DNA from: an uncultured Gammaproteobacteria bacterium
GTDB taxonomy: Bacteria; Patescibacteriota; Patescibacteriia; UBA1558; 2-01-FULL-52-15
Assembly: GCA_964402565.1 (NCBI GenBank)
Contig: CAYOCJ010000001.1
Coordinates: 504,802 to 568,801 of the forward strand
Reading direction: 5' to 3'
DNA length: 64,000 nt
Shown: positions 1,300-63,539 of the stretch, one piece after another
Numbering within the stretch: position 1 is the stretch's first letter
Layout: each line of letters starts with the position of its first letter
Position numbers and translations under genes: made by a program
The notes under the pieces: model-generated
The model's input: only the letters and a program-made list of their open reading frames with translations
Told to the model about the DNA's origin: nothing
Database searches by the model: none

Positions 1300-4200
1300 A
1301 TGTTAAAAAAGCTACATACCAAAAGGGGGGTACGTACCGGCTTTTACGTCTTCGTCATTGCCGGTTTAGTTTTAAATAATTTCAGTAGCATCAGGATCCC
1401 AGTGACCTATGCTGCTGACAGCGGATTCTTCGCAGCAAACGCGACCGTTGCAAGCAATAGCGTCACCAGTCCTGACAATGGCTGGGTATCTGATGATAAT
1501 CGCGCAACGTTCAATGCAACAGGCGATACCGCTGATTATAGCTTCGGAAACCTTGGTTTGCCGGCAAATGCCCAGATCGATGGCATTGAAGTTACGATCG
1601 AAGGCCAGAGATCGAGTAGCCGCAATTTGAGCGCAGCGCTATGGAATGCTTCGAACAGTAACCCAGACGCTTATAGCTCAAGCTCAACCGCAACGTTGAA
1701 CACGAATAGCGACACCGTCGTCACGCTCGGCGGACCAACATCAAAGTGGGGCAAGAACTGGGATTCAAATGATTTTGGTGCATCGTTCAAGATCCGAGTA
1801 GCTGGCGCCTCAGGCAGCGGAAACGCCCTGTTGGATCAGCTTCGAGTCAAAGTCTACTACAGCACCTTACCTCAGAGTGCTGAAAATCCATCACTTCCAA
1901 ACTCATGTGGCTTGGATGTGTCTTTAGTTTTGGACAACTCTGCATCCATCGACAACACTGAACTCGGTCAGATGAAGACTGCTTTCAAAGGTTTCGTTGA
2001 TGCATTAGCACCAGGAACTCCAACAGATTTCTCAGTCACGAAGTTCAATAGCAATGGCAGCACTGTATTGGACCCATTCTCTGCAAACGCAACAACGGTG
2101 AAGAATGCGATCGACTCTGTAACCACCTCAAGCGGTCACACAAACTGGGAAGATGGTTTGAACGTTTCTTTCGGGATCTCAGACCCGCGACCTTCTAATC
2201 CGAACGTCATGGTCTTTGCTTCTGACGGAGACCCAAACCGCAAGATCGGTTCAGTCGCTGACATTTCAGCTTTCGACGCAATGACAGCTGCTATCAATAA
2301 GGCAAATACGATCAAAGGCGCTGGCACTCGAATAATTACTCTCGGTGTCGGTAACGCTATCAATACTGCGAACTTGGTCGATATTTCAAGCGCTGACGCA
2401 AACTTCACTACAGCAAACTTCAGCGATCTGAATACAACTTTACAGAACCTCGCTCAGGAGCTTTGTGGCGGAACCATCACGGTTACCAAGAGAATTGGCA
2501 CCCCAGACAGTTCTGTTGCTGCGGGTGAAGGCTGGACATTCAATATCGGCGGAAACCCGAACAAAAACACTGACACAAATGGACAGACTCCATCAGTAAA
2601 TTTGACGAACGGAACCTACGTTGTAACCGAAACCGGCGGCCCTTCAGGCTATGCGTTCAATAGCGCAACATGCGAAGGCGCGACCAATGATGGTTCGTCG
2701 ATCGCAAATGGCGTTGAAGGAATCCAGGTTGGAACGAATGATATTGTCTCATGCACATTCTATAACACTGCAAATGCAGGAACACTAACCGTCATTAAGA
2801 ACGTTGTTGGCGGTGATGCGCAGGCATCTGATTTCAACCTAACGGTAGATAATGGTAACCCGGGATCATTCCCAGGCAGTTCAATAGGCACTGCGGTTAC
2901 AGTTGCTGCTGGAGCATCATACAATGTTGGTGAAGATCCAGTATCAAACTACTCGCCAAGCTATTCTGAAGGCTGTTCAGGTGTTATGCAGCCAGGTGGC
3001 CAGGTTGAGTGCACTGTTACCAATACATACACACCGCCTCAGGAGACAACCGGAACAGTAACCGTGATCAAAAAAGTCACTAAGGATAATGGCGGCACCG
3101 CTGAAGTGGGCGACTTTACCCTTATGGTTGGCGATACATCTGTTGTATCCGGTGAAGCTAATGCATTTTTCCCTGGGCCATACGCGGTCAGCGAAACCGG
3201 CGGCCCTTCAGGCTATGCGGGTTCATTCAGCGGAGACTGCGATGAAAATGGAAATATAAACGTTGTTGCAGGCGAGTCATATGTCTGCACCATCACCAAT
3301 GATGATATTCAACCGAAACTGACCGTTCAAAAGATCGTTGTTGGCGGTAACCTCGATGCAAATAACGTCCCCTTATTCGTGAATGGAGACCCAGTCACCA
3401 ATAATGTTACGAACGGATTTGATGCAGGGACTTACACTGTCAGTGAAACGCCGCAACCAAACTATATTCCAAGTTTCAGTGAGAATTGTCCAAATGGACA
3501 GATCTCATTGGTAGTAGGACAGGAAGCTACCTGTACCATTACGAACACCTACAATCCGCCGGTCGAACAGGACACGACCAATATCGTCGCAACTAAGATC
3601 GTCTGTCAGGATGAAGCAGACTTGCCGAACTGGGGAGAGACCGGTCAGCCGGATATCACCTCTTCGACAGCTGCAGATTTCTTAGCAACACACCCTGGTT
3701 GCCACTTGGCTCCAGACTGGACCTTCCAATACGGCTTTGCTGATAAAGAAGGCCAGGAAGGTGTCGACAAGCTGCCCGGAGATATCATCGGCGACGCAGA
3801 TGGTACGGACTCTACTGGTATGTGCAATGCACCATACTGCGGAGCTAATACCAATACCGGAACCGGCTACAGCGACTGGAAATCATTCGGACCGACAAAC
3901 GGTTCAGGTGAAGCATCAGTTTCGATCAGCGATCTTGAAGGAGCATCTTCTCTCTGGGTTCGTGAATCATTGAAGCCCGGCTATATCCCGTTCACCTATC
4001 CGCCACAGGGTCCGGATGAGAACAATGTAACTGCTGAGATCTATTGCCATAAGGATACGAACCATTACGACAACTATGACAATATTGAAGATGTCTCAGC
4101 TGGAAATACCTACTACTGTGTAGCATTCAATGCACCAAAGCCATTGACTATCGTTGCAAATAAGATCGTTTGTGAAAATGAATCAGACTTGCCGAACTGG

Positions 4201-33383: not shown

Positions 33384-35033
33384 TTAATTAGAGGCGCCGC
33401 TTTGATCCGCGCCCTCGGGATCATTTAACGGCTGCGTTGCATCATCACTGGCAGCACTCACATCAGCAAGACGCTGCAATACAAAATCTCTATCCAGGGC
33501 AGACAGGAACCATCCTGCCTGGGGGCCAGAATTTTTTCCCAAGAAACTTATGTAGATCGCGGAAAAAAGATCAGCAGGAGCAATGGCAAGCGTTGCCTTT
33601 ACCTCATGGATTTGCGTATGCAGCTCTTCACCAGTGAGTTCGTCATGTTCGCGAATATACTCGTAGATAGAACGCAACGACTGACGCTGTAAGGAGGTGA
33701 ACTCTTTTGCACCTTCGGGCGGTGCTTCTTGAATATCAAATTTATACTTTTCAGGGCTATACTGGGACAGCCATATTTTTGCATAGCGGGCCCTATCCTG
33801 ATACTCGCTCGCATCTGCATCGGTCAGTTGAGAACCTTTCATAGACGCAACTTTCTTCGCAAGATCAATGTGAGGCATTTGCACCAGATACGCTATCTGT
33901 GAGAAACGCGGCAGAAACGCTTCCTGAATCATGTTCCTGGACGAAGCCGGATAACATAATGGAAAAACCGATGTCCAATCTGATGCAGCGTTCTTAAAGT
34001 ATTCGCCTGCAATGGTGTCGAAATGATCATAGAGAATCGGAATGGTGTCTCCATAGGGTTCAAAGTCAATCTCATGCTTCGGCTCCTTCATCATAAGAAA
34101 GCGCAGCATGCGCGTCGGCAAAAGATCAGCAATTTCTTTTGCTGATGACCCTTTGCCTTTTGACGAGGACATCTTCGCACCACCGAGGGTAAAAAAATTA
34201 TAGGGAATATCGAGCGGCTCAGGGAACTGATAGATCTCTTTCAAAATTCGGCGCGCGATATCTCGCGATCCGCCTTTCGTATAGTGATCCTTTCCTCCGC
34301 CTTCCAGATGCACGCCTAGCACCATGAACTTTGCCGCCCATTCTACTTTCCAAGGCAATTTCGCTCGTCCGTCAAATGGATCTACTTTGCCAGAATGGCC
34401 GCAACCGACGGCCCACTTCACCAAATCAGCACTGCACGCATAAGATACTTGCTTGCCGTCCCATGCGGTCACCTTTGTAGTGCCTACTTTGCGGCATTGC
34501 TCACAGATGACCTGTAAGGGAAACCAATCATCGCCCTTATCAGATCCAGAAACCTCTTTATATATTTTTCTTATCTTGTCTGCATTGTCCAATGCAAGGC
34601 GAATGGCATTATTATATTTCCCGCCCAAATAAAGCGTACTCGAGCGATAGTACTCGGGCGTAAAGCCGGTATGTTCAACAGCAACCATAAACTCCTGCGC
34701 CCAGTACTCTGCATAGTTCGGTGCTGTCGGATCCGGTGAGGGTACCTCATACAAAGGACGCCCCATATAGGGACGATAGAGCTCCTGGTCAAGGTAGACC
34801 GGCAAACCGTCCATTGGGTCAAAATCATTCACTTCGAATAGGTACTTGTTTGGAATCTTCGCTTCGGTCAGCACATCTGAAACTATGCCATGAATGACGA
34901 CGCCTCTGAGCGAACCCACATGTACTCTGCCGGACATCGTTTTTTCATCGCGAATAATAAGAGGCTTGCCAGCGGCAATTTCTTTTGCAAAACGATTTTT
35001 AGCTGAATCTCGAAGTTTATATCCCCAAAACAT
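33384..35033 (-). CDS. lysK: Lysine--tRNA ligase, class I (LysK type)
   Basis: SGRVHVGSLRG (HIGH-equivalent) and KMSSSKG (KMSKS-equivalent), as in archaeal-type class I LysRS. Confidence 0.8.
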   Translation of the reverse strand: MFWGYKLRDSAKNRFAKEIAAGKPLIIRDEKTMSGRVHVGSLRGVVIHGIVSDVLTEAKIPNKYLFEVNDFDPMDGLPVYLDQELYRPYMGRPLYEVPSPDPTAPNYAEYWAQEFMVAVEHTGFTPEYYRSSTLYLGGKYNNAIRLALDNADKIRKIYKEVSGSDKGDDWFPLQVICEQCRKVGTTKVTAWDGKQVSYACSADLVKWAVGCGHSGKVDPFDGRAKLPWKVEWAAKFMVLGVHLEGGGKDHYTKGGSRDIARRILKEIYQFPEPLDIPYNFFTLGGAKMSSSKGKGSSAKEIADLLPTRMLRFLMMKEPKHEIDFEPYGDTIPILYDHFDTIAGEYFKNAASDWTSVFPLCYPASSRNMIQEAFLPRFSQIAYLVQMPHIDLAKKVASMKGSQLTDADASEYQDRARYAKIWLSQYSPEKYKFDIQEAPPEGAKEFTSLQRQSLRSIYEYIREHDELTGEELHTQIHEVKATLAIAPADLFSAIYISFLGKNSGPQAGWFLSALDRDFVLQRLADVSAASDDATQPLNDPEGADQSGASN

Positions 35034-50106: not shown

Positions 50107-50340
50107 TTATTTACGATATGTTATGCGCCCCTTGGTGAGGTCGTACGGACTGATCTCAACCCGAACTCTGTCACCTGGTATCAAGCGAATTTTATTCATC
50201 CGCATTTTTCCGGACAAATGACACAAAATTTCATGTCCATTATCCAAAGTCACCTTGAATGTAGCGCTCGGAAGTAATTCCTCGACCACACCCTCCATCT
50301 CTATAAATCCTTTGGACGTATCTTGGCTGTCTTGTGGCAT
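50107..50340 (-). CDS. infA: Translation initiation factor IF-1
   Basis: S1-like OB fold: [60 protein letters not shown]. Confidence 0.92.
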
Positions 50341-50398
50341 TAGTCTCTCTTAAACAAAAACTATAATCAGCCGTAAAGGCTGAAAATAACTCGTGATA

Positions 50399-50426
50399 AT
50401 TATACAGTTTTTCTCTAACCTGTCAA
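50399..50426 (-). promoter_or_regulatory. Sigma70-type promoter of the infA-ribosomal operon (-35 TTGACA, -10 TATAAT)
   Basis: Minus strand reads TTGACAggttagagaaaaactgTATAAT, about 55 nt upstream of infA. Confidence 0.6.
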
Positions 50427-50498
50427 GAATTAAAGCTCCCGCAGTACCTTAAACCAACTGCATGTAAAAACAGCACTAATATTAGCATTTTCTGACTA

Positions 50499-50527
50499 TT
50501 GACAAAAATTAGATAATCGTGTATATT
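50499..50527 (+). promoter_or_regulatory. Divergent outward-facing consensus promoter (-35 TTGACA, 17-nt spacer, -10 TATATT)
   Basis: Plus strand reads TTGACAaaaattagataatcgtgTATATT. It drives the GC-rich 250-nt unit described below. Confidence 0.55.
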
Positions 50528-50605
50528 GTTGACGATTGATTTCTGGTCTTCGAGTCCGGCAAACAGTCCACAAACCAAAACCAACGTCGAAAGGGAGGTG
50601 GTACC

Positions 50606-50707
50606 TTGAACAAGTTCCATTGCACCGCAGCGCGGAGCGCGCATCTGGGCCTGAAGGCCATTTATAACAACGCGACCGGCGACGCCGAGACCAGCTCGAT
50701 CAACTGA
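50606..50707 (+). CDS. Candidate small ORF (33 aa, TTG start) inside a GC-rich promoter-terminator cassette; may instead be part of a non-coding RNA
   Basis: Strong SD GGGAGGTG lies 5 nt upstream of TTG. Predicted peptide: (M)NKFHCTAARSAHLGLKAIYNNATGDAETSSIN. No homology recognised. Confidence 0.25.
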   Translation: MNKFHCTAARSAHLGLKAIYNNATGDAETSSIN

Positions 50708-50724
50708 TCGACCAGGCCGACGGC

Positions 50725-50790
50725 AAGGGGCAGCACTCGTGGAAATGGGAAGACCATTTTCAATGAGCAGCTGCCCCTTCTCTTTTCCAA
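50725..50790 (+). terminator. Rho-independent terminator of the small plus-strand unit
   Basis: ggggcagc ... gctgcccc two-tier stem followed by ttctcttttcc. Confidence 0.55.
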
Positions 50791-50794
50791 AAAA

Positions 50795-52549
50795 TTATTC
50801 GAGTACAGCCTTAATACGCCTGACGCCAGCAGAACTAGCTTCTTCCTTTTGAATCTTAAGCTTTCCCATATCTTTCGTGTTCTGCACATGCGGACCACCG
50901 CAAATTTCTTTACTAAAGTCGCCCACAAAATAGACTTTGACTTTGTCTCCATACTTGTGCTCAAAAACACCTGTTGCGCCAATCTTCTTCGCATCAGCGA
51001 CTGACATCTCTTCGAAATGAACATCATGTCCCTTGGCGATCTCGGTATTGACCATTTCCTCTATTTTGTGAATCTCATATTCTTCAAGCTTGCGAGGAAA
51101 TGTAAAATCAAAACGCAAACGCTCAGCCGTGATATTACTGCCACGCTGGTTAATATCCTCGCGTCCCAAGATGCGCTTCATAGCCTCGAGCATGAGATGG
51201 TTTGCTGTATGATACTTCACTGTTTGATCACTATGATCAGCAAGTCCACCTTTGAATTTCCCGGCTGAGGCGGTGCGGCTTTTATCTTGATGGTCTTTCA
51301 TCAATGCAGTAAAGCTAGCAACATCGACTGATATATTCTTTTCATGTGCAAGCTCCTGCACCATTTCCAGTGGAAAACCATAACTTGAAAATAAGGTAAA
51401 TGCATCTTCACCAGAAATAGTTCCAGCTTTTGCATATTTCTCGAAAGTTCTGGTTCCTTGATCTATTGTCTTTGAAAACTTTTCCTGCTCCTTATGCAGC
51501 TCCTCTACTACTACATCATGATTACGTCCAAGTTCTGGATAGTCATTGTGATATTCTCGTGTAACGATCTGAACCAATGAATCAAATTCTTTGGAATCCA
51601 AATCAATCATCTTCGCGTAGCGTACCATACGGCGAATCAACCTGCGCAGGACATAACCCTGGTCAACATTCGAAGGCCGGATAGCTCGTTCATCAGCCAG
51701 CATGAAAACAGTAGCACGAATATGATCAACGATGATCCTAACAGCTCGATCGTTTCCTTGTGCCTTTTTCGCTGTTCGATTCACATGCGTAATGAGCGGC
51801 TCAACCGTATCAATGCTATAGACCGAGTCCTGACCATCAAGCACTGCAACGGTGCGCTCCAAGCCCATACCAGTATCAACATTTTTCTGCTTCAATGGCG
51901 TATAGGAGCCATCTTTCTGTTTTTCATAGGCCATAAATACATTATTCCAAATCTCGATCCAACGGCTATCTTTCGGATCATATATCTTGGGCGCAGGCTC
52001 ATTAGCGCTCCAGTAAAATATCTCTGTGTCAGGTCCGCAAGGACCAGAATCTCCTACTGGTCCCCAGAAATTATCATCGAGATACGCGATCCGATCTTTT
52101 GAAACGCCATGTAGTTGCCAAAGATGCGCTGTTTCTTCATCTCGTGGAATACCTTCTTTTTCATTGCCGTCGAAAACAGTAAATGCCAATTTATCCAGAG
52201 AAATACCAAGATATTTTTTATCTGTAAGGAATTCAAAGCTCCATTCAACGGCATCTGTTTTGAAATAGTCGCCTAAAGACCAATTGCCGAGCATTTCGAA
52301 AAAAGTCAGATGCGTACCATCGCCTACTTCATCGATATCCCCGGTACGGATACACTTCTGTGCATTGGCGAGCCTGAGACCCTGCGGATGCTTCTCTCCT
52401 TTGAGAAATGGGGTTAAGGGGTGCATACCAGCTGTGGTAAAGAGCACGGTCGGATCATTCTCTGGAATCAAAGAAGCCGAAGGCACGATCTCGTGGCCTT
52501 TGGAACGGAAAAAATTGAAGTAGAGGTTTTTGAGCTGACGGCTAGTCAT
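50795..52549 (-). CDS. alaS: Alanine--tRNA ligase, short form (catalytic + tRNA-binding + editing domains; lacks the C-terminal C-Ala domain)
   Basis: N-terminal FNFFRSKGHEIVPSASLIPENDPTVLFTTAGM. Editing-domain HTANHL...CGGPHV Zn motif. The gene is 584 aa, versus about 870 aa for typical AlaS. The start was trimmed to MTSRQLK at 52549. Confidence 0.85.
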   Translation of the reverse strand: MTSRQLKNLYFNFFRSKGHEIVPSASLIPENDPTVLFTTAGMHPLTPFLKGEKHPQGLRLANAQKCIRTGDIDEVGDGTHLTFFEMLGNWSLGDYFKTDAVEWSFEFLTDKKYLGISLDKLAFTVFDGNEKEGIPRDEETAHLWQLHGVSKDRIAYLDDNFWGPVGDSGPCGPDTEIFYWSANEPAPKIYDPKDSRWIEIWNNVFMAYEKQKDGSYTPLKQKNVDTGMGLERTVAVLDGQDSVYSIDTVEPLITHVNRTAKKAQGNDRAVRIIVDHIRATVFMLADERAIRPSNVDQGYVLRRLIRRMVRYAKMIDLDSKEFDSLVQIVTREYHNDYPELGRNHDVVVEELHKEQEKFSKTIDQGTRTFEKYAKAGTISGEDAFTLFSSYGFPLEMVQELAHEKNISVDVASFTALMKDHQDKSRTASAGKFKGGLADHSDQTVKYHTANHLMLEAMKRILGREDINQRGSNITAERLRFDFTFPRKLEEYEIHKIEEMVNTEIAKGHDVHFEEMSVADAKKIGATGVFEHKYGDKVKVYFVGDFSKEICGGPHVQNTKDMGKLKIQKEEASSAGVRRIKAVLE

Positions 52550-52740
52550 GGGAATTAGTATATTGTAAAAGTACAAGGAAAACAAGATTTTTTATATTCA
52601 GGAGCTTTTACTACTATAAACTATTGACAAAATATATTATTTATGCTATTTTACTCGGTCTTTTGCATCACAGTCAGAAGGCTTAGTTCTTCGAAATCAC
52701 AATTTACGGCGACTATGGTCGCTCTAAGAAGGGAGAAAAT

Positions 52741-53994
52741 GTGCGCTTTCAAAAACGTCTTTTTCTGTTCATCGCGGCCGCTCTGTTGAGCGCAACTCAA
52801 CTCAGCGCCCAAGCACCGCCAGAAATGCTCAGTCTTTCCGCGCCCTACGGATACAACGGTGAGACGGTGGCGATCGACGGGCACTATCTCTTCGGTCCCT
52901 ACCAGACGACGGTGACATTCAACGGTTCTCCTGCGCTGATCATCTTCCAGAGGACCTACGGATCAGATTCACCAATCCTCCAGGAGATCGTCATGCTGGT
53001 TCCGGATGATGCCTGCTCGGGCCCAGTGTGCGTACGGACGCCGTACGGAACGACTTGCTGGCCAGATTCATTCACAGTCTGGCCGTATTCCGAAACGGAT
53101 GATGACTTCATCGGTGACCACTGCGACAACTGTCCGAGTGTAAACAACCCCGACCAGTCGGACAGCGACGGTGACGGGGTCGGCGACGCTTGTGACAATT
53201 GCCCGACCATCTACAATCCGAGTCAATCGGATTTCAACTCCGACGGCCAGGGAGACCACTGCGACAACGACGACGGCACCGTCTATCTCTCGTTGCCCGA
53301 AAAAAGTACGATCGAGTGGGACGGCGACTCAGGAGCCCATCCCTGGAACATCTACCGAGGTGATCTAGCGGAGCTCCGAGCGAGCGGAACCTATACGCAG
53401 CCTAGCGGCACGAATCCTGGAGCTGGACGAGAGTGCAGCCTGATGCAAGTTCAAACCACAGACTTCGACGTTATCAACCCCGGTGAAGTGTGGTTCTATC
53501 TCGTGAATGGTACCTACCCGAACGGGATCGAATACGCTCTTGGCGCGGATTCGAGTGGAACCATGCGACCGAACGACAATCCGTGCGGTGTTCAAACGCC
53601 TAACACATTTACGGCAAAATACTGGAACACACCAATGTACCAGTACGAGCCGCCGATGCCGACGTGGGCACCGGACATCGTGACACAGGTTCCCACGGTC
53701 GACTTCAACTGGGGGCAAGGCTCTCCAGATCCTGCCATCACCAACGACCACTTCATGGCGGAATACACGAAGTACCAATTCTTTGTAGGCGGCCCCTATC
53801 AGTTCAGGGCAAAGGTCGATGACGGAGTTCGAGTCTTCGTCGATGGCTACAGGGTCATCGATGAATGGCGCGATCAGGGTGAGCCGACCTTCTATGGCAA
53901 CATTACCCTCAACGAAGGACTGCATGCCATCAAAATCCTCTACTACGAGGATGGCGGCGGTGCTGTCATCCAGGTAAACTGGCAGCGTCAGTAG
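52741..53994 (+). CDS. Secreted protein with thrombospondin type-3 Ca-binding repeats and a C-terminal PA14 domain; GTG start; GC-rich relative to neighbours
   Basis: Signal peptide [19 protein letters not shown]. Three DxDxDGxxDxCDNCP TSP3 repeats. PA14-like [26 protein letters not shown]...[22 protein letters not shown]. Confidence 0.7.
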
Positions 53995-57951: not shown

Positions 57952-59547
57952 CTAGAGTAGCGATATCCCGATAATCTCATCGGGTTTTTTTAACCCCATT
58001 ATTTTTAAAATGGTCGCAGTTATATCCGGCAAAATACCGGCAGATGAAGCCATACTCAAATCGTGTCCACGAATACCATAGGAGACATTTTTACCCTGCC
58101 ATGGTTTACCAATAATGATAAAGGGCACCGGATTATTTGAATGCATCTTATCAACCGCGCCAGTTTGTAAATTAAAGAGGCTTTCGGCATTACCGTGATC
58201 TGCAGTAATCAAAACCGCACCATCATAGGCAAGGGCAGTATCGACGATCTGACCTATGCACTCATCCAGCACCTGAACGGCTTCGATCGTTGCCTGCAAA
58301 TTTCCGGTGTGGCCTACCATGTCTGCATTGGCAAAGTTAACGACGATAAAGTCATATTTCGACTCGCGGATCTCGGATATCAACCGAGCCGTGATTTCCC
58401 GGGCGCTCATTGCTGGTTTTTGATCATAGGATGCAGATTTTACTGATGGTATCAAGATATGCTCCTCGCCGGGATATTTCTTCTCCTGGCCTCCGTTAAA
58501 AAAATAAGTCACATGCGCATATTTTTCTGTTTCTGCGATATGCAGCTGGGCTAAGCCTGCGTCGCTTATGACTTTAGCCAGAGGCATCGTAACTGCTTCC
58601 GGAGGAAAGGCGACAGGCACCGGCAAATCTTTTTCATACTCGGTCATTGCAAGAAAATGCAGATCCTGCATATACACACGTTCAAATTTATTAAAACCCG
58701 GAAGTACAAAAGCTTTCGTTAACTGACGTGCCCGGTCGGCGCGAAAGTTAAAGAAGACAACACCATCCCCATTTGAGATCGTTGCCACCGGTTTTCCATG
58801 ATCAGTGATGACCGTCGGCACTAATTGCTCGTCATAGACGCCCTTATCGTATGACTCCTGAATGGCCTTCTGCGGATCGTCAGACATGACATCAGCAACA
58901 CCCTGTACCATAGCGCGATACGCTTTCTCAGTGCGATCCCACCTATTATCCCTGTCCATGGCATAGAAACGGCCGGCAAGCGTAGCGATTTTTCCAATGC
59001 CTAATTTTTTCAACACATCCTGCAGCTTACTGACAAAGGTCAATCCGCTATTGAGCGGCGTATCTCTGCCGTCGAGAAAACAATGTATAAATACCTTCTC
59101 CATTTTTTGCTGTTCGGCCAATTCTAACAGCGCATACAGGTGCTCATTGAAGCTATGCACGCCTCCCGAGCTGACCAAACCTATGATATGCAATGCCGTG
59201 CCGTTCTTTTTGACCGTCTTGTACAGCTCGAGAAATTCTTTATTCTGAAAAAAAGTTCCGTCTGCGATCGATTTTGAAATACGCGGCAGGCTCTGATACA
59301 GCACTCTGCCTGATCCAAGGCTCAAGTGGCCCACCTCCGAATTGCCTACCTCGCCCCACGACAAGCCTACTGCTTCCCCTGCGGCCTGTATGGACATGGC
59401 CGGATAATTCGTCAAATACGAATCCATGTTCGGCGTCTTGGCAAGACTGATGGCATTAGCCCGGGATGGCGGCGCAATGCCCCACCCGTCGAGTACGATC
59501 AGTACCACAGGGCGCGGTCGGACAAATGGTGCATTCGAGGGTGGCAT
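57952..59547 (-). CDS. gpmI: 2,3-bisphosphoglycerate-independent phosphoglycerate mutase (copy a)
   Basis: VLIVLDGWGI, GNSEVGHLSLGSGR (catalytic Ser) and ITADHGN. Confidence 0.9.
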   Translation of the reverse strand: MPPSNAPFVRPRPVVLIVLDGWGIAPPSRANAISLAKTPNMDSYLTNYPAMSIQAAGEAVGLSWGEVGNSEVGHLSLGSGRVLYQSLPRISKSIADGTFFQNKEFLELYKTVKKNGTALHIIGLVSSGGVHSFNEHLYALLELAEQQKMEKVFIHCFLDGRDTPLNSGLTFVSKLQDVLKKLGIGKIATLAGRFYAMDRDNRWDRTEKAYRAMVQGVADVMSDDPQKAIQESYDKGVYDEQLVPTVITDHGKPVATISNGDGVVFFNFRADRARQLTKAFVLPGFNKFERVYMQDLHFLAMTEYEKDLPVPVAFPPEAVTMPLAKVISDAGLAQLHIAETEKYAHVTYFFNGGQEKKYPGEEHILIPSVKSASYDQKPAMSAREITARLISEIRESKYDFIVVNFANADMVGHTGNLQATIEAVQVLDECIGQIVDTALAYDGAVLITADHGNAESLFNLQTGAVDKMHSNNPVPFIIIGKPWQGKNVSYGIRGHDLSMASSAGILPDITATILKIMGLKKPDEIIGISLL

Positions 59548-59549
59548 AC

Positions 59550-61106
59550 CTACTTTCGTATGAGACTCGACCCTGTCATGAGGTCTGGTTTATCAACGTG
59601 CAATAGCTCAAGCAAGGTTGGCGCAATATCAGCGAGGATGCCTTTCTTGCGAAGCTGCAGCTTCGGCCCTTTTTTGATGATAATGCAGGGCACGGGATTT
59701 TTTGAGTGTTCAGTGTCTATCTCACCGGTTGTTCTATTTACCAGTTCCTCTGCATTGCCGTGATCTGCAGTAATGCATATCATACCGTTCTTTGCGAGAA
59801 CCGCTGCAACCATTTTACCAAGACAATGGTCTACGTACTCTGCTGCTTCGATGGTAGCCGGTACGCTTCCCGTATGCGCCAGCATGTCTGCATTTGAAAT
59901 ATTAACCCCGATAAAATCATACCTGTCGCTACTTATTGCTTTCAAAAATTGGCTGGTGATAGACGGCAGGCCCATTTTCGGAGTTTTTTTGTATGAAAGC
60001 ACGTCCGGTGATGGGACCATGATGCGCTTTTCGCCTGCGACCGGCCGGTCATAACCGCCATTAAAGAAATAGGTCATGTGCGCGTATTTCTCGCTCTCAG
60101 CGATATACAATTGCCGGAAATTGCTCAGCACGACCGGCAAGGTGTCCACGATGTCGCGGCTCGGATATGCAGTGAGAATCGTTTCCAGATCCGGGCCAAA
60201 ATCAGTCATGGCGACGAAAAAAACATTTTTTAATACTTTCAAGCGCTTAAATGCATGTGCATTGACCTTTTCAAAATCAAATTGCGTAAACGGCTTTGAG
60301 AGCTGCCGAGCGCGATCAGACCGTAAATTGAAAAAAACAACACTGTCCTTGTCGCTTATCTTCCCCACCGGCTTGCCATTTGAGGTGATCACGGTCGGCA
60401 GAATGAACTCATCGGTCTCGCCGCGATTATACGCATGCAGAACAGCATCCTCGGCTGAACTCGCTGTCTGGGGCGCTACGCCGCGAACCATTGCATCGTA
60501 AGCTAATTGCGTATGCTTCCAGTCCTTTTTCCTGTCCATCGCATATGCTCTGCCGATAATAGAAGCTATGGTGCATTGTGCGTTGAACAAATTCTGATAC
60601 TTGCGAAGAAGCCGGATCGCAGAATACCGGGAGCTGTCCCGTCCATCCGTAAACAAATGCAGATAAATATTCTTAACCTTTTGGTAGCGGAAAAATGTAA
60701 TAAGCGCTATCAGATGATCAGGCTGCGAATGTGCGCTTTGTCCGTTCGACAAGAGCCCCATCAAATGCACATTCGATTTATACTTGCGGGCATGTTTTGC
60801 TGCCTGCAAAAAAGCAGGATTCTTGAAAAAAGTTCCGTCTGAGATCGAGCGCGAGATCATCACGCTGTCTTGTTCGACAATGCGTCCTGCTCCGATATTC
60901 ATATGGCCTGCTTCGGAATTTCCATCCTGGCCAAGCGGCAATCCCACATGGACCGATGAAGCCAATAATTCTGTGTATGCGTACTTACGCTTAAACTCAT
61001 CCATATGGGGCGTTTTTGCCTGATAGAGCGCATTGCTCTCATCATGGGGGCCGATCCCCCAGCCATCAAGAATAAATAGCACAAATGGTTTGCTAGTTTT
61101 TGCCAT
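59550..61106 (-). CDS. gpmI: 2,3-bisphosphoglycerate-independent phosphoglycerate mutase paralogue (copy b, ~35-40% identity to copy a)
   Basis: FVLFILDGWGIGP, GNSEAGHMNIGAGR and ITADHGNAE. The start was trimmed to MAKTSKPF at 61106. Confidence 0.85.
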   Translation of the reverse strand: MAKTSKPFVLFILDGWGIGPHDESNALYQAKTPHMDEFKRKYAYTELLASSVHVGLPLGQDGNSEAGHMNIGAGRIVEQDSVMISRSISDGTFFKNPAFLQAAKHARKYKSNVHLMGLLSNGQSAHSQPDHLIALITFFRYQKVKNIYLHLFTDGRDSSRYSAIRLLRKYQNLFNAQCTIASIIGRAYAMDRKKDWKHTQLAYDAMVRGVAPQTASSAEDAVLHAYNRGETDEFILPTVITSNGKPVGKISDKDSVVFFNLRSDRARQLSKPFTQFDFEKVNAHAFKRLKVLKNVFFVAMTDFGPDLETILTAYPSRDIVDTLPVVLSNFRQLYIAESEKYAHMTYFFNGGYDRPVAGEKRIMVPSPDVLSYKKTPKMGLPSITSQFLKAISSDRYDFIGVNISNADMLAHTGSVPATIEAAEYVDHCLGKMVAAVLAKNGMICITADHGNAEELVNRTTGEIDTEHSKNPVPCIIIKKGPKLQLRKKGILADIAPTLLELLHVDKPDLMTGSSLIRK

Positions 61107-62373
61107 GTAATTCCCGTTCAATTTCCAGCAATCGATTATACTTTGCAATGCGTTCGCCGCGGGCAGTAGACCCTGTTTTAATAAAATCCGCATTAACACC
61201 TACGGCAAGGTCTGCAATAAATGTGTCCGGGGTCTCACCGCTTCGATGCGAAATAGCAGTTGCATAGTTGTGCTGCTGTGCAAGCTGAATGCAAGATAGC
61301 GTCTCCGTTAATGTCCCGATCTGATTCAACTTGATCAAAATACTATTTGCGGCCCCCTGGTCGATGCCTTTTTGCAGCCTTTTAACATTGGTCACAAAAA
61401 GATCATCGCCGATCAGCTTTAGTTTTTCATGATGCGCCTTGGATCGTGCGGTATACTGTTGCCATGCCCGCCAGTCTTCCTCGGCAAAAGGATCTTCAAT
61501 TGCGCTAATAGGATACTCGCGAATAAGCCCGTCATAGTATTCGGCCAGTTCAGATGAATCCATTTCTGTATGCTCAAGCTGTAACTTATATTTTTCTATT
61601 TCATGATCATAGAAAACCGATGATCCTGCGTCGATGCCAAGGGCAATCTCGCTTCCCGGCGTATAGTTGGCTTGCTCAATGGCATGCAGCAGCAGATCAA
61701 AGACGCGACGATGATTAGGAAAATTCGGCGCATATCCGCCTTCATTGCCCAGATCGGTATCCATATGTTCTGAAGTTAATACTGATCCTAGTGCATGAAA
61801 AATTTCACTGCCCTGCTCTAAGCGTTCAGCAAACGCTGTTGCATGATGCGGAATGATCCAGAATTCCTGGATATTGAGATTCGTCGCAGCATGCATACCT
61901 CCGTTGATGACATTGATAAGCGGAGTCGGCAAGTGATAGTCCTGATCGTCGCTTTCGCTCAGCGATCTAATATACCTATAGAGCGGCACGCCGAATGCTT
62001 GCGCAGCAGCACGAGCACAAGCGAGCGAAACGCCTAAAATCGCATTTGCTCCTAAGCGGCTTTTATTTTCAGTGCCATCAAGACCTATCATCAATTGATC
62101 CAGCCTCTGTTGATCATTCACATACATACCTGAAAGATGGGCAGCGATTTCGTTATTTACATTTGCAACAGCTTTCAAAACCCCTTTACCTCCGTATCGC
62201 TTCTTGTCGCCGTCGCGCAATTCAAATGCTTCAAAGGTGCCAGTAGACGCGCCCGACGGCACTGAAGCAGTTGCCTGCATGCCATTTTCCAAATGGACCG
62301 TTACTTCAAGCGTAGGATCGCCGCGGGAGTCCAAGATTTCCAATGCCTCGATTTTTTTTATTTTTTTTGACAT
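61093..62373 (-). CDS. eno: Enolase (copy 2; SHRSGETPD variant of the SHRSGETED motif)
   Basis: ILDSRGDPTLEVTV, SHRSGETPDTFIADLAVG and KYNRLLEIE. The start was trimmed to MSKKIKKIEALEI at 62373, 3 nt after the pgk stop. Confidence 0.9.
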   Translation of the reverse strand: MSKKIKKIEALEILDSRGDPTLEVTVHLENGMQATASVPSGASTGTFEAFELRDGDKKRYGGKGVLKAVANVNNEIAAHLSGMYVNDQQRLDQLMIGLDGTENKSRLGANAILGVSLACARAAAQAFGVPLYRYIRSLSESDDQDYHLPTPLINVINGGMHAATNLNIQEFWIIPHHATAFAERLEQGSEIFHALGSVLTSEHMDTDLGNEGGYAPNFPNHRRVFDLLLHAIEQANYTPGSEIALGIDAGSSVFYDHEIEKYKLQLEHTEMDSSELAEYYDGLIREYPISAIEDPFAEEDWRAWQQYTARSKAHHEKLKLIGDDLFVTNVKRLQKGIDQGAANSILIKLNQIGTLTETLSCIQLAQQHNYATAISHRSGETPDTFIADLAVGVNADFIKTGSTARGERIAKYNRLLEIERELHGKN

Positions 62374-62375
62374 GA

Positions 62376-63539
62376 TCACTTCTTCTTCACCAGCGGTCGC
62401 AATGCAGGGCACGGTGTTCCCTGCAAGAACGACAGCATGGCTCCTCCTCCTGTTGAAACAAAATGAATCTTTTTCTCCGCTTTTGCAGCAAGCACAGCTT
62501 TTACTGTTTCGCCGCCACCGATATATGCTTTAGCGCGCGCTTTCATTAGAATGTGGACCAAAGCATGCGTTGCCTTCGCATAACGCGGGTCTTCAAAGTA
62601 ACCCAATGGCCCGTTCCAGATCACGGTACGCGCTTTTTGGATAACCTGCTCATACAAAGCGATGGTATCAGGACCAAGGTCCAGTATCATCTCACTTTTA
62701 CGAACGCTCCCGACTGCAGAGACGCGCGCTTTTGCAGTTAGCGATGAGGATACCAAGGCATCGACCGGCAGTTTCAGCTTATTGCTCATGAGATTCTTGC
62801 TCCAGGCAAGCATATGCGGTTCAATTTTTGATCTACCGACATCGTAATTCAATGCTGCAAGGACATTGTTCGCCAAAGCACCGCCCAGGAGCAAATACTC
62901 AACTTTTCGGAGCATGCGCTTCAGTAAAACGATCTTTGATGAAATTTTATTACCCCCTACAATAGCTACGATAGGATGTGCTGCATGACTCAGCAATCCA
63001 TAGAGACGCTCGACCTCATACTGGAGCAAAAAACCCGCATAGGACGGCAAATGACGAGTCACGGCGACCATGGATGCATGATTTCGATGTATATTGCCGA
63101 ATGCATCATCGACATATACATCTGCTAAAGCAGCCAATTCTTTACCGAGCCTGGGATCATTTTGTTCTTCCCGGATATCAAATCGAATGTTTTCAAGGCA
63201 TGCTATCTGGCCGGGTTTTAGTTTTTTTGACCATGCAGCATAGTCGTCCATGCTTCCGTTCCAAAAGGCTATCGGCTTTCCCAAAAGCCTCGTCAGAGCA
63301 GCGACTATCGGCTTCAGGCTCAAGTCATGATCATGGCCATGCGGCCTGCCACGATGCGACACCACGATAACTCTCGCTTTTTTCTCGAGGAGATATCGTA
63401 TAGTCTTGAGCGAGCTCTCTAGCTTCCACAGATCATCAGGCCCTATCTTCCCCTTTGTCACTGATGCATTCAAATCGCATCGAAGCAAAACCCGTTTGTT
63501 TCGAAGTAGCAGCACAGAACGTATGCTTCGCAATTTCAT
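62376..63539 (-). CDS. pgk: Phosphoglycerate kinase
   Basis: VLLRCDLNA...VIVVSHRGRP N-domain and C-domain GGGA/GGGE motifs. Confidence 0.9.
   Translation of the reverse strand: MKLRSIRSVLLLRNKRVLLRCDLNASVTKGKIGPDDLWKLESSLKTIRYLLEKKARVIVVSHRGRPHGHDHDLSLKPIVAALTRLLGKPIAFWNGSMDDYAAWSKKLKPGQIACLENIRFDIREEQNDPRLGKELAALADVYVDDAFGNIHRNHASMVAVTRHLPSYAGFLLQYEVERLYGLLSHAAHPIVAIVGGNKISSKIVLLKRMLRKVEYLLLGGALANNVLAALNYDVGRSKIEPHMLAWSKNLMSNKLKLPVDALVSSSLTAKARVSAVGSVRKSEMILDLGPDTIALYEQVIQKARTVIWNGPLGYFEDPRYAKATHALVHILMKARAKAYIGGGETVKAVLAAKAEKKIHFVSTGGGAMLSFLQGTPCPALRPLVKKK

Follow-up and report, generated by a model that had tools for sequence, protein, structure and literature searches.

What is encoded in the spacer between infA and alaS of a Patescibacteria genome, where a GC-rich segment is bounded by its own promoter and its own terminator and matches no RNA family? 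We addressed this question in a 64,000-nt stretch of contig CAYOCJ010000001.1 (the window; all coordinates are positions in this whole stretch, and L-numbers are codes of related loci). A sequence-only reading of the segment, referred to here as the cassette, had offered 2 options: a toxin- or bacteriocin-like small protein gene or a structured small RNA (sRNA). This either/or does not fit; the evidence favors a translated, mRNA-like RNA with an unconstrained peptide. We tentatively interpret the cassette as a lineage-restricted, non-essential, self-contained unit that would make an mRNA-like small RNA of ~250 nt, an interpretation that we take seriously although it falls short of probable, and we think that ribosome loading and G+C richness, not the peptide, may be under selection. 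As an unannotated small-RNA/small-open reading frame (ORF) locus, the cassette is assigned to no family and is confined to a single Patescibacteria clade.

A self-contained candidate transcription unit

As had been proposed, the cassette is a self-contained promoter-to-terminator unit on the plus strand, and its promoter and GC-rich transcript are kept in relatives (Table 1). The promoter was found in the form claimed, TTGACA-17-TATATT. Only 5 sites matching the consensus at 11/12 positions or better occur in the whole window on both strands, compared with 1.1 in shuffled sequence, and the cassette promoter is therefore not a chance match; 2 of the 5, namely this one and the 12/12 infA promoter, stand back to back in the infA–alaS spacer. 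The elevated GC content is equally evident: measured over segments of 150 nt, it reaches 0.58-0.61 across 50550-50749, against 0.33-0.44 in both flanks, and that of the predicted transcript is 0.55, with ~0.33 in the surrounding intergenic DNA. A repeat search of the window revealed no second copy, i.e., the cassette is single-copy there.

The predicted transcript opens with a stem-loop, continues through an unpaired C/A-rich spacer into a Shine-Dalgarno (SD)-like tract and a TTG-initiated ORF, and closes with an intrinsic terminator; the hairpins reported earlier, including the palindrome over the ORF stop, are all present. The terminator stem is formed by GGGGCAGC...GCTGCCCC. Read on the minus strand, this hairpin leads into TTGCCGTCGG, which holds no T-tract, confirming that the T-rich tail, broken by a C, is confined to the plus strand. 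A simple terminator scan skipped this site, because its loop is above the 8-nt limit of the scan. Only 7-10 nt separate the end of the cassette from the alaS stop codon on the minus strand.

Relative to composition-matched shuffles, the whole transcript folds with a z-score of -3.3 to -3.6, whereas without the terminator z is -0.49; the excess fold stability thus comes almost wholly from the terminator. The L082 body without its terminator behaves alike (z = -0.50). A body without excess structure is as expected of an mRNA. The suggestion of a structured sRNA consequently stands in part: the hairpins and the separate transcription unit speak for it, whereas the body is no more stable than shuffles and the periodicity of the ORF, described below, is codon-like.

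Table 1. Coordinates of the cassette, its parts, and the flanking genes and promoters in the window (MFE, minimum free energy)
Feature	Position	Strand	Remarks
infA–alaS spacer	50341-50794		Holds the candidate cassette
infA	50107-50340	(-)	Heads the block infA-rpmJ-rpsM-rpsK-rpsD-rpoA-rplQ
alaS	50795-52585	(-)	Convergent with the cassette; stop codon 50795-50797; from ORF list and AlaS homology
infA operon promoter, TTGACA-16-TATAAT	50426-50399	(-)	12/12 match; divergent from cassette promoter; kept in all relatives
Palindrome ACTAATATTAGC (consensus GCTAAnATTAGC)	50475-50486	none	13 nt 5' of the cassette -35 hexamer
Cassette promoter, sigma-70-type, TTGACA-17-TATATT	50499-50527	(+)	11/12 match; predicted start near 50534
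5'-terminal stem-loop of predicted transcript	50534-50568	(+)	In MFE and centroid folds
Unpaired C/A-rich spacer CACAAACCAAAACCAACGTCGAAA	50569-50592	(+)	Unpaired in MFE and centroid folds
SD-like tract GGGAGGTG	50593-50600	(+)	5 nt to start codon; L082 equivalent AGGAGGTG
TTG-initiated ORF, 33 codons, MNKFHCTAARSAHLGLKAIYNNATGDAETSSIN	50606-50707	(+)	From ORF list; stop TGA 50705-50707
Hairpin GCGCG-GAG-CGCGC inside ORF	50630-50642	(+)	From sequence and folds
Hairpin GGCC-TGAA-GGCC inside ORF	50648-50659	(+)	From sequence and folds; no clear counterpart in L082
Three-tier hairpin: outer GCCG/CGGC, middle CC/GG, inner TCGATCA-AC-TGATCGA (50696-50711)	50684-50724	(+)	In MFE fold
Intrinsic terminator: long imperfect stem-loop (50727-50777) and tail TTCTCTTTTCC	50727-50788	(+)	From sequence and fold

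Occurrence among relatives

AlaS (596 aa, short form) and InfA place the window in Patescibacteria, with Candidatus Komeilibacteria as the nearest named relatives (66% AlaS identity). Related loci were found by exact-protein look-ups and by a scan for the conserved infA promoter pattern, and the order alaS–gap–infA is kept in all recovered loci. Besides the window, 7 lineages carry a cassette in this gap, namely L082 (85% AlaS identity), L084 (68%), L163 and L164 (66%), L085 (66%), L158 (64%), and L159 (62%); L167 and L165 lack one. All 7 cassettes share the orientation of that in the window, have their promoter at the same distance from a conserved palindrome, and specify predicted transcripts of 200-425 nt with a GC content of 0.54-0.64, each ending in a GC-rich hairpin followed by a T-rich tail. 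The promoter pattern TTGAC[AG]-17-TAnnnT is found at this place in L082, L084, L085, L158, L159, L163, L164, and L104. Given the ~0.33 GC of the neighboring intergenic DNA, the high G+C is being maintained.

The constants across lineages are the promoter, a 5'-proximal hairpin (6 of the 8 lineages, z from -1.65 to -3.9), a C/A-rich unpaired stretch, an SD with a start codon, high G+C, and the terminator, to which can be added a stop codon in or beside a hairpin, followed by a GGCC-rich segment. Sequence similarity is narrower: when every transcript was compared by nhmmer with 169 loci, the only links were between the window and L082 (E = 0.006) and between L163 and L164 (E = 1e-9). Using the promoter pattern to search for more relatives yielded chance matches in viral contigs only.

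Several of these loci carry further features. On the reverse strand of L163 (~3300-3480; spacer positions 555-740), a second promoter, TTGACA-17-TAAAAT, lies between the first cassette and alaS and would produce a ~90-nt RNA closed by GGGAGGGGTG...CACCCCTCCC and followed by a terminator. L164 has a different structured stretch in its place, and neither matches Rfam. In L084 alone (reverse strand, spacer positions 765-945), the cassette terminator is followed on its 3' side by a Cys-rich, promoterless ORF of ~60 aa that has a separate SD; its 4 CxxC motifs (MSCPECHGNKMVTCARCDGTGEVLHTG...CPTCHGSGEVLCSYCDG) resemble a DnaJ-type zinc finger, and the cassette RNA could act as its leader. L108 does not differ from L164/L121 up to ~74 nt into the RNA, a stretch that takes in the infA leader and the promoter, and is then unrelated up to the contig end; it represents a structural variant of the RNA, or else the assembly is chimeric. 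The cassette-less L165 (reverse strand) has a plus-strand promoter-like site, TTGACA-17-TCTAAT, directed toward the 3' end of alaS, in the last ~40 nt before the alaS stop codon.

Ribosome binding site, reading frame, and peptide

A strong SD followed by a 33-aa TTG-initiated ORF was claimed for the cassette and is indeed there. Counted from GGAGGT, the gap between the SD and TTG is 6 nt in the window and 5 nt in L082, where the ORF likewise begins with TTG, following AGGAGGTG, and runs to the aligned TGA; the start and stop positions match those of the window, and the product is 39 aa. An SD with a start codon is found in 6 lineages (window, L082, L158, L163, L164, and L085), in front of ORFs of 33, 39, 5, 2, 2, and 1 codons, respectively, the SDs matching the canonical SD over 7-8 nt amid otherwise unrelated sequence. 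The lineages other than the window and L082 have equally strong SDs of the AAGGAGG type (UAAGGAGG, AAGGAGGU, AAGGAGGG, and AAGGAG) before their ORFs of 5, 2, 2, and 1 codons, the shortest of which read ATG-NNN-TAG in L163 and L164 and GTG-TAA in L085. Since the SD and the start codon persist despite ORF lengths anywhere between 1 and 39 codons and a peptide free to change, ribosome binding or translation appears to be the selected property.

The composition of the ORF points in the same direction. GC at codon positions 1/2/3 is 0.45/0.48/0.85 in the window ORF and 0.49/0.59/0.92 in that of L082, with permutation P values (maximum over the three phases) of 5e-4 and 5e-5, respectively. The genes of the window have a third-position GC content (GC3) of 0.50 +/- 0.05, and none of the 14,571 in-gene segments of 33 codons reaches 28/33. 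The periodicity starts at the start codon, is in the frame of the ORF, is limited to the ORF, and is absent from the other lineages. With the window and L082 ~57% diverged, a pattern free of selection would be expected to have faded. On these grounds, the 33-codon ORF is probably translated.

The peptide, by contrast with the reading frame, is not conserved. Comparison with the L082 ORF gave no BLASTP similarity at E <= 100, and the global alignment of the two peptides is no better than that of shuffles (z = 1.2, P = 0.13); over the same evolutionary distance, InfA is 99% and AlaS 85% identical. Neither peptide has a Pfam match, and the window peptide is polar, rich in N, T, S, A, G, and D, with no hydrophobic stretch.

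These properties bear on the possibility that the cassette is a genuine small-protein gene, the peptide of which (hydrophilic, 33 aa in the window and 39 aa in L082) evolves very fast, for instance as a disordered or composition-constrained microprotein. We consider this explanation possible but on balance unlikely; in our ranking by confidence it heads the rivals, followed by a purely noncoding sRNA, an effect of transcription itself or of an antisense RNA, a housekeeping RNA, and a diversity-generating retroelement (DGR) or gene fragment. It would account for the strong and properly spaced SD, the start and stop codons shared with L082, the difference in ORF length of 18 nt (a multiple of 3), the in-frame periodicity limited to the ORF, the unstructured C/A-rich leader, and a body without excess structure. 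Moreover, the last 10-15 codons of the 2 ORFs can be aligned in frame at ~62-73% nucleotide identity (manual codon alignment), and L084 and L085 have ORFs of 22 and 34 codons at a comparable place. However, within this aligned tail, codon positions 1, 2, and 3 are equally conserved (9, 9, and 10 of 15 by manual count), unlike what purifying selection on a protein would leave, and the reading frame of a conserved nucleotide block, CGCAGCG, differs between the window and L082 (manual comparison). Against a small protein also stand the lack of peptide similarity and of a Pfam family, the mere 1-5 codons following the SD in 4 other lineages, the failure of gene callers to call the ORF in L001 or L082, and the loss of the cassette in L167.

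The toxin- or bacteriocin-like protein gene envisaged earlier is not supported, there being no hydrophobic segment, Pfam match, maturation or transport genes among the neighbors, or peptide conservation. Type I toxins and precursors of bacteriocins or of ribosomally synthesized and post-translationally modified peptides (RiPPs) resemble the cassette in their small ORF, strong SD, intergenic position, and heavy mRNA secondary structure. They differ in possessing a hydrophobic or amphipathic membrane segment, an antisense promoter, or maturation, immunity, and export genes. A type I toxin is disfavored by the polar peptide and by the absence of any promoter-like minus-strand site inside 50534-50790, and a bacteriocin or RiPP precursor by the absence of maturation, immunity, and export genes among the neighbors and of a conserved leader or core. 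Nor is a ribosome-mediated attenuator indicated, since only the convergent alaS lies downstream and the mini-ORF products ML, MT, and MHREL share no codon theme. An alanine-sensing leader peptide that would steer antisense transcription into alaS was rejected, since Ala codons are not clearly enriched and the mini-ORFs contain none.

Noncoding and other alternatives

A second explanation holds that the cassette specifies a purely noncoding, trans-acting sRNA, in which the SD-like tract would serve in structure, pairing, or protein binding, the C/A-rich spacer would be the seed, and the ORF would be incidental. The lineage restriction and the dispensability are typical of sRNAs, and the promoter and terminator of its own and the fast turnover of the sequence would suit one. 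In L082, three hairpins of the window recur although some of their pairs differ in both arms. The 5' stem-loop has a counterpart of other sequence at the same place; the hairpin at 50630-50642 aligns with CGUGG-CGA-CCACG, altered on both sides; and the three-tier hairpin, the single block of significant similarity to L082 (E = 4e-4), whose inner palindrome carries the ORF stop TGA in its 3' arm, reads GGCG/CGCC, CC/GG, and CCGATC-GGCT-GATCGG in L082, with 2 pairs changed on both sides. Such retention, seen in 2 sequences and not statistical, is suggestive. Outside the hairpins, the window and L082 have the block GTCCAnAAACCAAA of the C/A-rich spacer in common. The analogues in L084, L159, and L164 remain structured without their terminators (z from -3.3 to -4.0) and show no periodicity, and in the MFE folds of the window, L082, and L085, the SD tract is paired with a CU-rich tail beyond the terminator.

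Nevertheless, a noncoding sRNA would leave the triplet periodicity in the ORF frame unexplained, as well as the start codon at canonical spacing after the SD in 6 lineages. The bodies of the window and L082 transcripts are no more structured than shuffles, the structure conservation index computed from pairwise window–L082 sequence alignments is low (0.25-0.31), and no target has been put forward. We therefore regard a purely noncoding function as unlikely, somewhat more so than a microprotein. A CsrA-type sponge was rejected, with ~4 GGA motifs (manual count) against ~5 expected from composition. The same applies to a Dam/GATC switch at the palindrome, given that GATC is 1.9-fold over-represented genome-wide and forms 62 close pairs in the window, where 469 occurrences were observed, compared with 248 expected from base composition or 366 from a Markov model.

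Alternatively, the act or the direction of transcription might be what matters, with the RNA being cis-antisense to the alaS 3' untranslated region or read-through, or the divergent promoter affecting infA through shared regulation or supercoiling. Because alaS has no canonical minus-strand terminator ahead of the cassette (the only terminator-like site is at 50383-50367), the alaS transcript would be fully complementary to the cassette RNA. The 2 strongest promoters of the region stand back to back, 72 bp apart with the conserved palindrome between them, and the sequence and length of the transcript are poorly conserved, as this explanation would allow. Conversely, it leaves unaccounted for the maintained G+C, the conservation of the SD and the start codon, and the periodicity; alaS and infA point in the same direction, so that no insulation is needed; and the palindrome and the infA promoter survive in L167, where the cassette is missing. 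We judge this explanation improbable.

That the cassette is a diverged housekeeping RNA (6S, signal recognition particle [SRP], RNase P, or transfer-messenger RNA [tmRNA]), or a cis-regulatory RNA or ribozyme missed by Rfam in Patescibacteria, appears very improbable. The GC-rich island, the strong promoter, and the neighboring translation genes would suit such an RNA, and 6S RNA in particular is a strongly expressed small RNA of ~200 nt, poorly conserved in sequence. However, in agreement with the earlier failure to assign an RNA family, Rfam 15 gave no match at gathering thresholds in the window and 11 related loci, and permissive filters (E <= 10 and E <= 5) returned only chance-level snoRNA/miRNA matches with E >= 0.3; ARAGORN detected no tRNA or tmRNA in the window. 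For 6S RNA, the Rfam model is silent even at E <= 10, the folds have no long closed rod with a central bubble, the cassette contains an SD-led ORF, and an RNA with a housekeeping role is not expected to be lost, as the cassette is, from this locus in the close relative L167. For SRP RNA, CCAGGCCGACGGCAAGGGGCAGC is reminiscent of domain IV, but GGGGCAGC forms the terminator stem, the relatives do not have the motif, and Rfam is silent. A cis-regulator would want a downstream gene on the same strand, which is lacking.

Finally, DGRs are common in Patescibacteria, and a DGR template repeat, or a fragment copied from a GC3-rich coding sequence, could yield periodicity without translation, with third positions that are nearly all G/C, many AAC/ACC/GAC codons, and a hairpin at the end of the periodic segment, but this is the least plausible explanation of all, given that the 64-kb window has no reverse transcriptase (its YxDD-containing ORFs are alaS, the phosphoglycerate kinase gene, a glycosyltransferase, a methyltransferase, and one ORF antisense to the PA14 gene), no second copy matching at non-A positions, and no repeat of the segment, that the element has no similarity to phage or plasmid records, and that the periodic segment begins exactly at the SD-led start codon. 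A repeat or mobile element was rejected in the same way, the cassette being single-copy in the window, dissimilar to phages and plasmids, and without terminal repeats at the L167 junction.

Interpretation

Among these explanations, we favor, tentatively, the mRNA-like small RNA. We infer that the cassette RNA is transcribed, bound by ribosomes, translated, and stabilized in the following manner. The strong sigma-70 promoter would drive synthesis of an RNA composed of the 5' hairpin, the C/A-rich spacer, the 7-8-nt SD with UUG, the GC-rich ORF, and the terminator abutting alaS. Ribosomes, as 30S subunits or 70S particles, would bind the SD and the start codon and would translate as far as the GATC hairpin, in which the stop codon precedes the terminator by ~20 nt. 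Ribosome occupancy, together with the 5' hairpin, may protect the transcript or set its conformation, akin to the stabilizing SD (STAB-SD) and ribosome binding site stabilizers of Gram-positive bacteria. Translation in the lineage of the window would generate the periodicity, and a separate pressure for G+C would act mainly at third positions; this second pressure must be assumed, because translation alone leaves a GC3 of 0.85-0.92 unexplained.

Several observations weigh against this interpretation. For the periodicity, the window and L082 do not count as independent samples, and their GC3 of 0.85-0.92, which translation by itself does not suffice to explain, is unlike the codon usage of this genome. 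The other lineages are positional analogues, only putatively homologous by the shared place of their promoter; in L159, an SD-like motif is missing. The analogy with STAB-SD requires RNase J, which was not found among the large ORFs tested in the 64-kb window. In addition, the cassette is missing at the L167/L166 locus, where the gap measures 149 nt and contains no counterpart to ~50492-50793 of the window. L167 is close to the window (InfA 94% and the AlaS C-terminus 89% identical), and its infA is 91.5% identical in nucleotide sequence to that of L082, either of them being 85.5% identical to that of the window. A second close contig (InfA 96%) has a gap of 150 nt and, judged from its gene layout alone, probably also lacks the cassette.

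No terminal repeats or target duplication were seen at the L167 deletion junction. Elsewhere, L160 and L106 have a protein gene in the gap, and in Patescibacteria further removed that retain the alaS-infA synteny, the place of the cassette is taken by protein genes or a 155-nt gap. Because the unit was deleted in L167, and probably in the second close relative, any function must be dispensable. The unit is old within a family-level clade, fast-evolving, and dispensable.

A more ambitious version of the interpretation would make the cassette a novel type of translation-coupled riboregulator, peculiar to this Patescibacteria clade, capturing ribosomes on a sequence-free, GC3-locked ORF (a start-stop in some lineages) and thereby reporting or buffering free ribosome or initiation capacity. 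Its setting would be that of an RNA produced back to back with the infA operon promoter and sharing the conserved palindrome with it. We regard this as a long shot.

Comparison with known systems

Dual-function or mRNA-like sRNAs with a small ORF include SR1/SR1P of Bacillus subtilis, RNAIII/hld of Staphylococcus aureus, and SgrS/SgrT of Escherichia coli. The cassette resembles them in its short separate transcript with promoter and terminator, its SD and start codon, its ORF of fewer than 50 codons with structured flanks, its lineage restriction, and its non-essentiality. It differs in that the peptides of SR1, RNAIII, and SgrS are conserved and active and their pairing regions have known targets, whereas the cassette peptide is unconserved and the ORF falls to 1-5 codons in other lineages.

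In Gram-positive bacteria, an untranslated SD binds 30S and blocks RNase J1 (PMC4113751). With the STAB-SD of cry3A described there, the cassette shares a long purine-rich SD near the 5' end (GAAAGGGAGG in the window and GAAAGGAGG in L163), which is kept independently of conserved coding sequence and is joined to a 5' stem-loop. The complementarity of the cassette SD is to the canonical anti-SD, and that to the 3' end of the host 16S rRNA is presumed. Unlike STAB-SD, which is non-initiating and stands before a long gene, the cassette SD has a canonically spaced start codon after it, both in the window and in 5 other lineages, and no downstream gene.

Mini-ORF ribosome-binding sites are also represented by the two-codon minigenes of lambda bar. 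Start-stop sites, such as those of E. coli yecJ and hslR, bind ribosomes and are functional (10.1101/520783). The cassettes of L085, L163, and L164 resemble start-stops and bar minigenes in having an SD, a start codon, and a nearly immediate stop, which in L158 follows after 5 codons. Because no functional peptide is possible in these mini-ORF lineages, it would be ribosome binding itself that is retained there. The difference is that known start-stops lie within or upstream of the genes that they modulate, whereas the cassettes are on a stand-alone RNA, and the ORF of the window has 33 codons.

Genomic setting and other features of the window

The neighborhood of the cassette comprises infA with ribosomal-protein genes, alaS, a PA14 protein gene, and mnmA. 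Between the divergent promoters of infA and the cassette, all relatives carry a 12-bp palindrome (GCTAAnATTAGC) at 23-25 bp from the -35 hexamer; it was found in L082, L084, L085, L158 (2 copies), L159, L163, L164, and L167. In the cassette-less L167, it follows directly after the alaS stop codon. The palindrome ACTAATATTAGC of the window is part of the spacer, not of the RNA. On the minus strand, a T-run comes next, and the palindrome could be an operator of the infA operon or a weak end signal of alaS. It is not enriched elsewhere in the window, arguing against a regulon there.

The 5' leader of infA (50341-50392, minus strand) contains a hairpin, TCAGCC-TTTAC-GGCTGA, at 50383-50367, followed by TTATAGTTTTTGTTTAAG immediately 5' of the start codon; the leaders of L082, L163, L164, and L167 have differing hairpins followed by a conserved TTTTGTTTAA. 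Judging by this arrangement, the hairpin looks like an attenuator or a translational operator of the infA ribosomal-protein operon.

The AlaS of the window (50795-52585, minus strand) is of the short form, 596 aa, for which only the catalytic and tRNA_SAD domains are listed. Next to alaS, at 52741-53994 on the plus strand, lies a gene for a PA14/thrombospondin-type-3-repeat protein with the highest GC3 (0.67) of the genes in the window; in L082, an unrelated ORF of 168 aa replaces it, which suggests that this site is a variable slot for surface proteins. Further away, the minus strand encodes a class I lysyl-tRNA synthetase (33384-35033; Pfam tRNA-synt_1f) and tandem paralogues of cofactor-independent phosphoglycerate mutase (57952-59547 and 59550-61199), the latter beside the phosphoglycerate kinase gene (62376-63539).

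Implications

On present evidence, the locus is not a new mechanism. Two features appear unusual, each represented by few sequences: an ORF that is free in sequence yet GC3-locked, and an SD that is conserved ahead of mini-ORFs. A conserved ribosome binding site is combined with no peptide conservation and with a GC3 near 0.9, compared with 0.5 in the genes. Next to nothing has been charted of the small RNAs and small ORFs in the Candidate Phyla Radiation, and the tiny genomes of these organisms make any maintained unit informative. The infA–alaS spacer offers a clean example, with a consensus promoter, a terminator, a set of positional orthologues, and a natural deletion. If translation without a conserved product is true, the cassette would be a useful case for the interconversion of mRNA-like sRNAs and de novo small ORFs.

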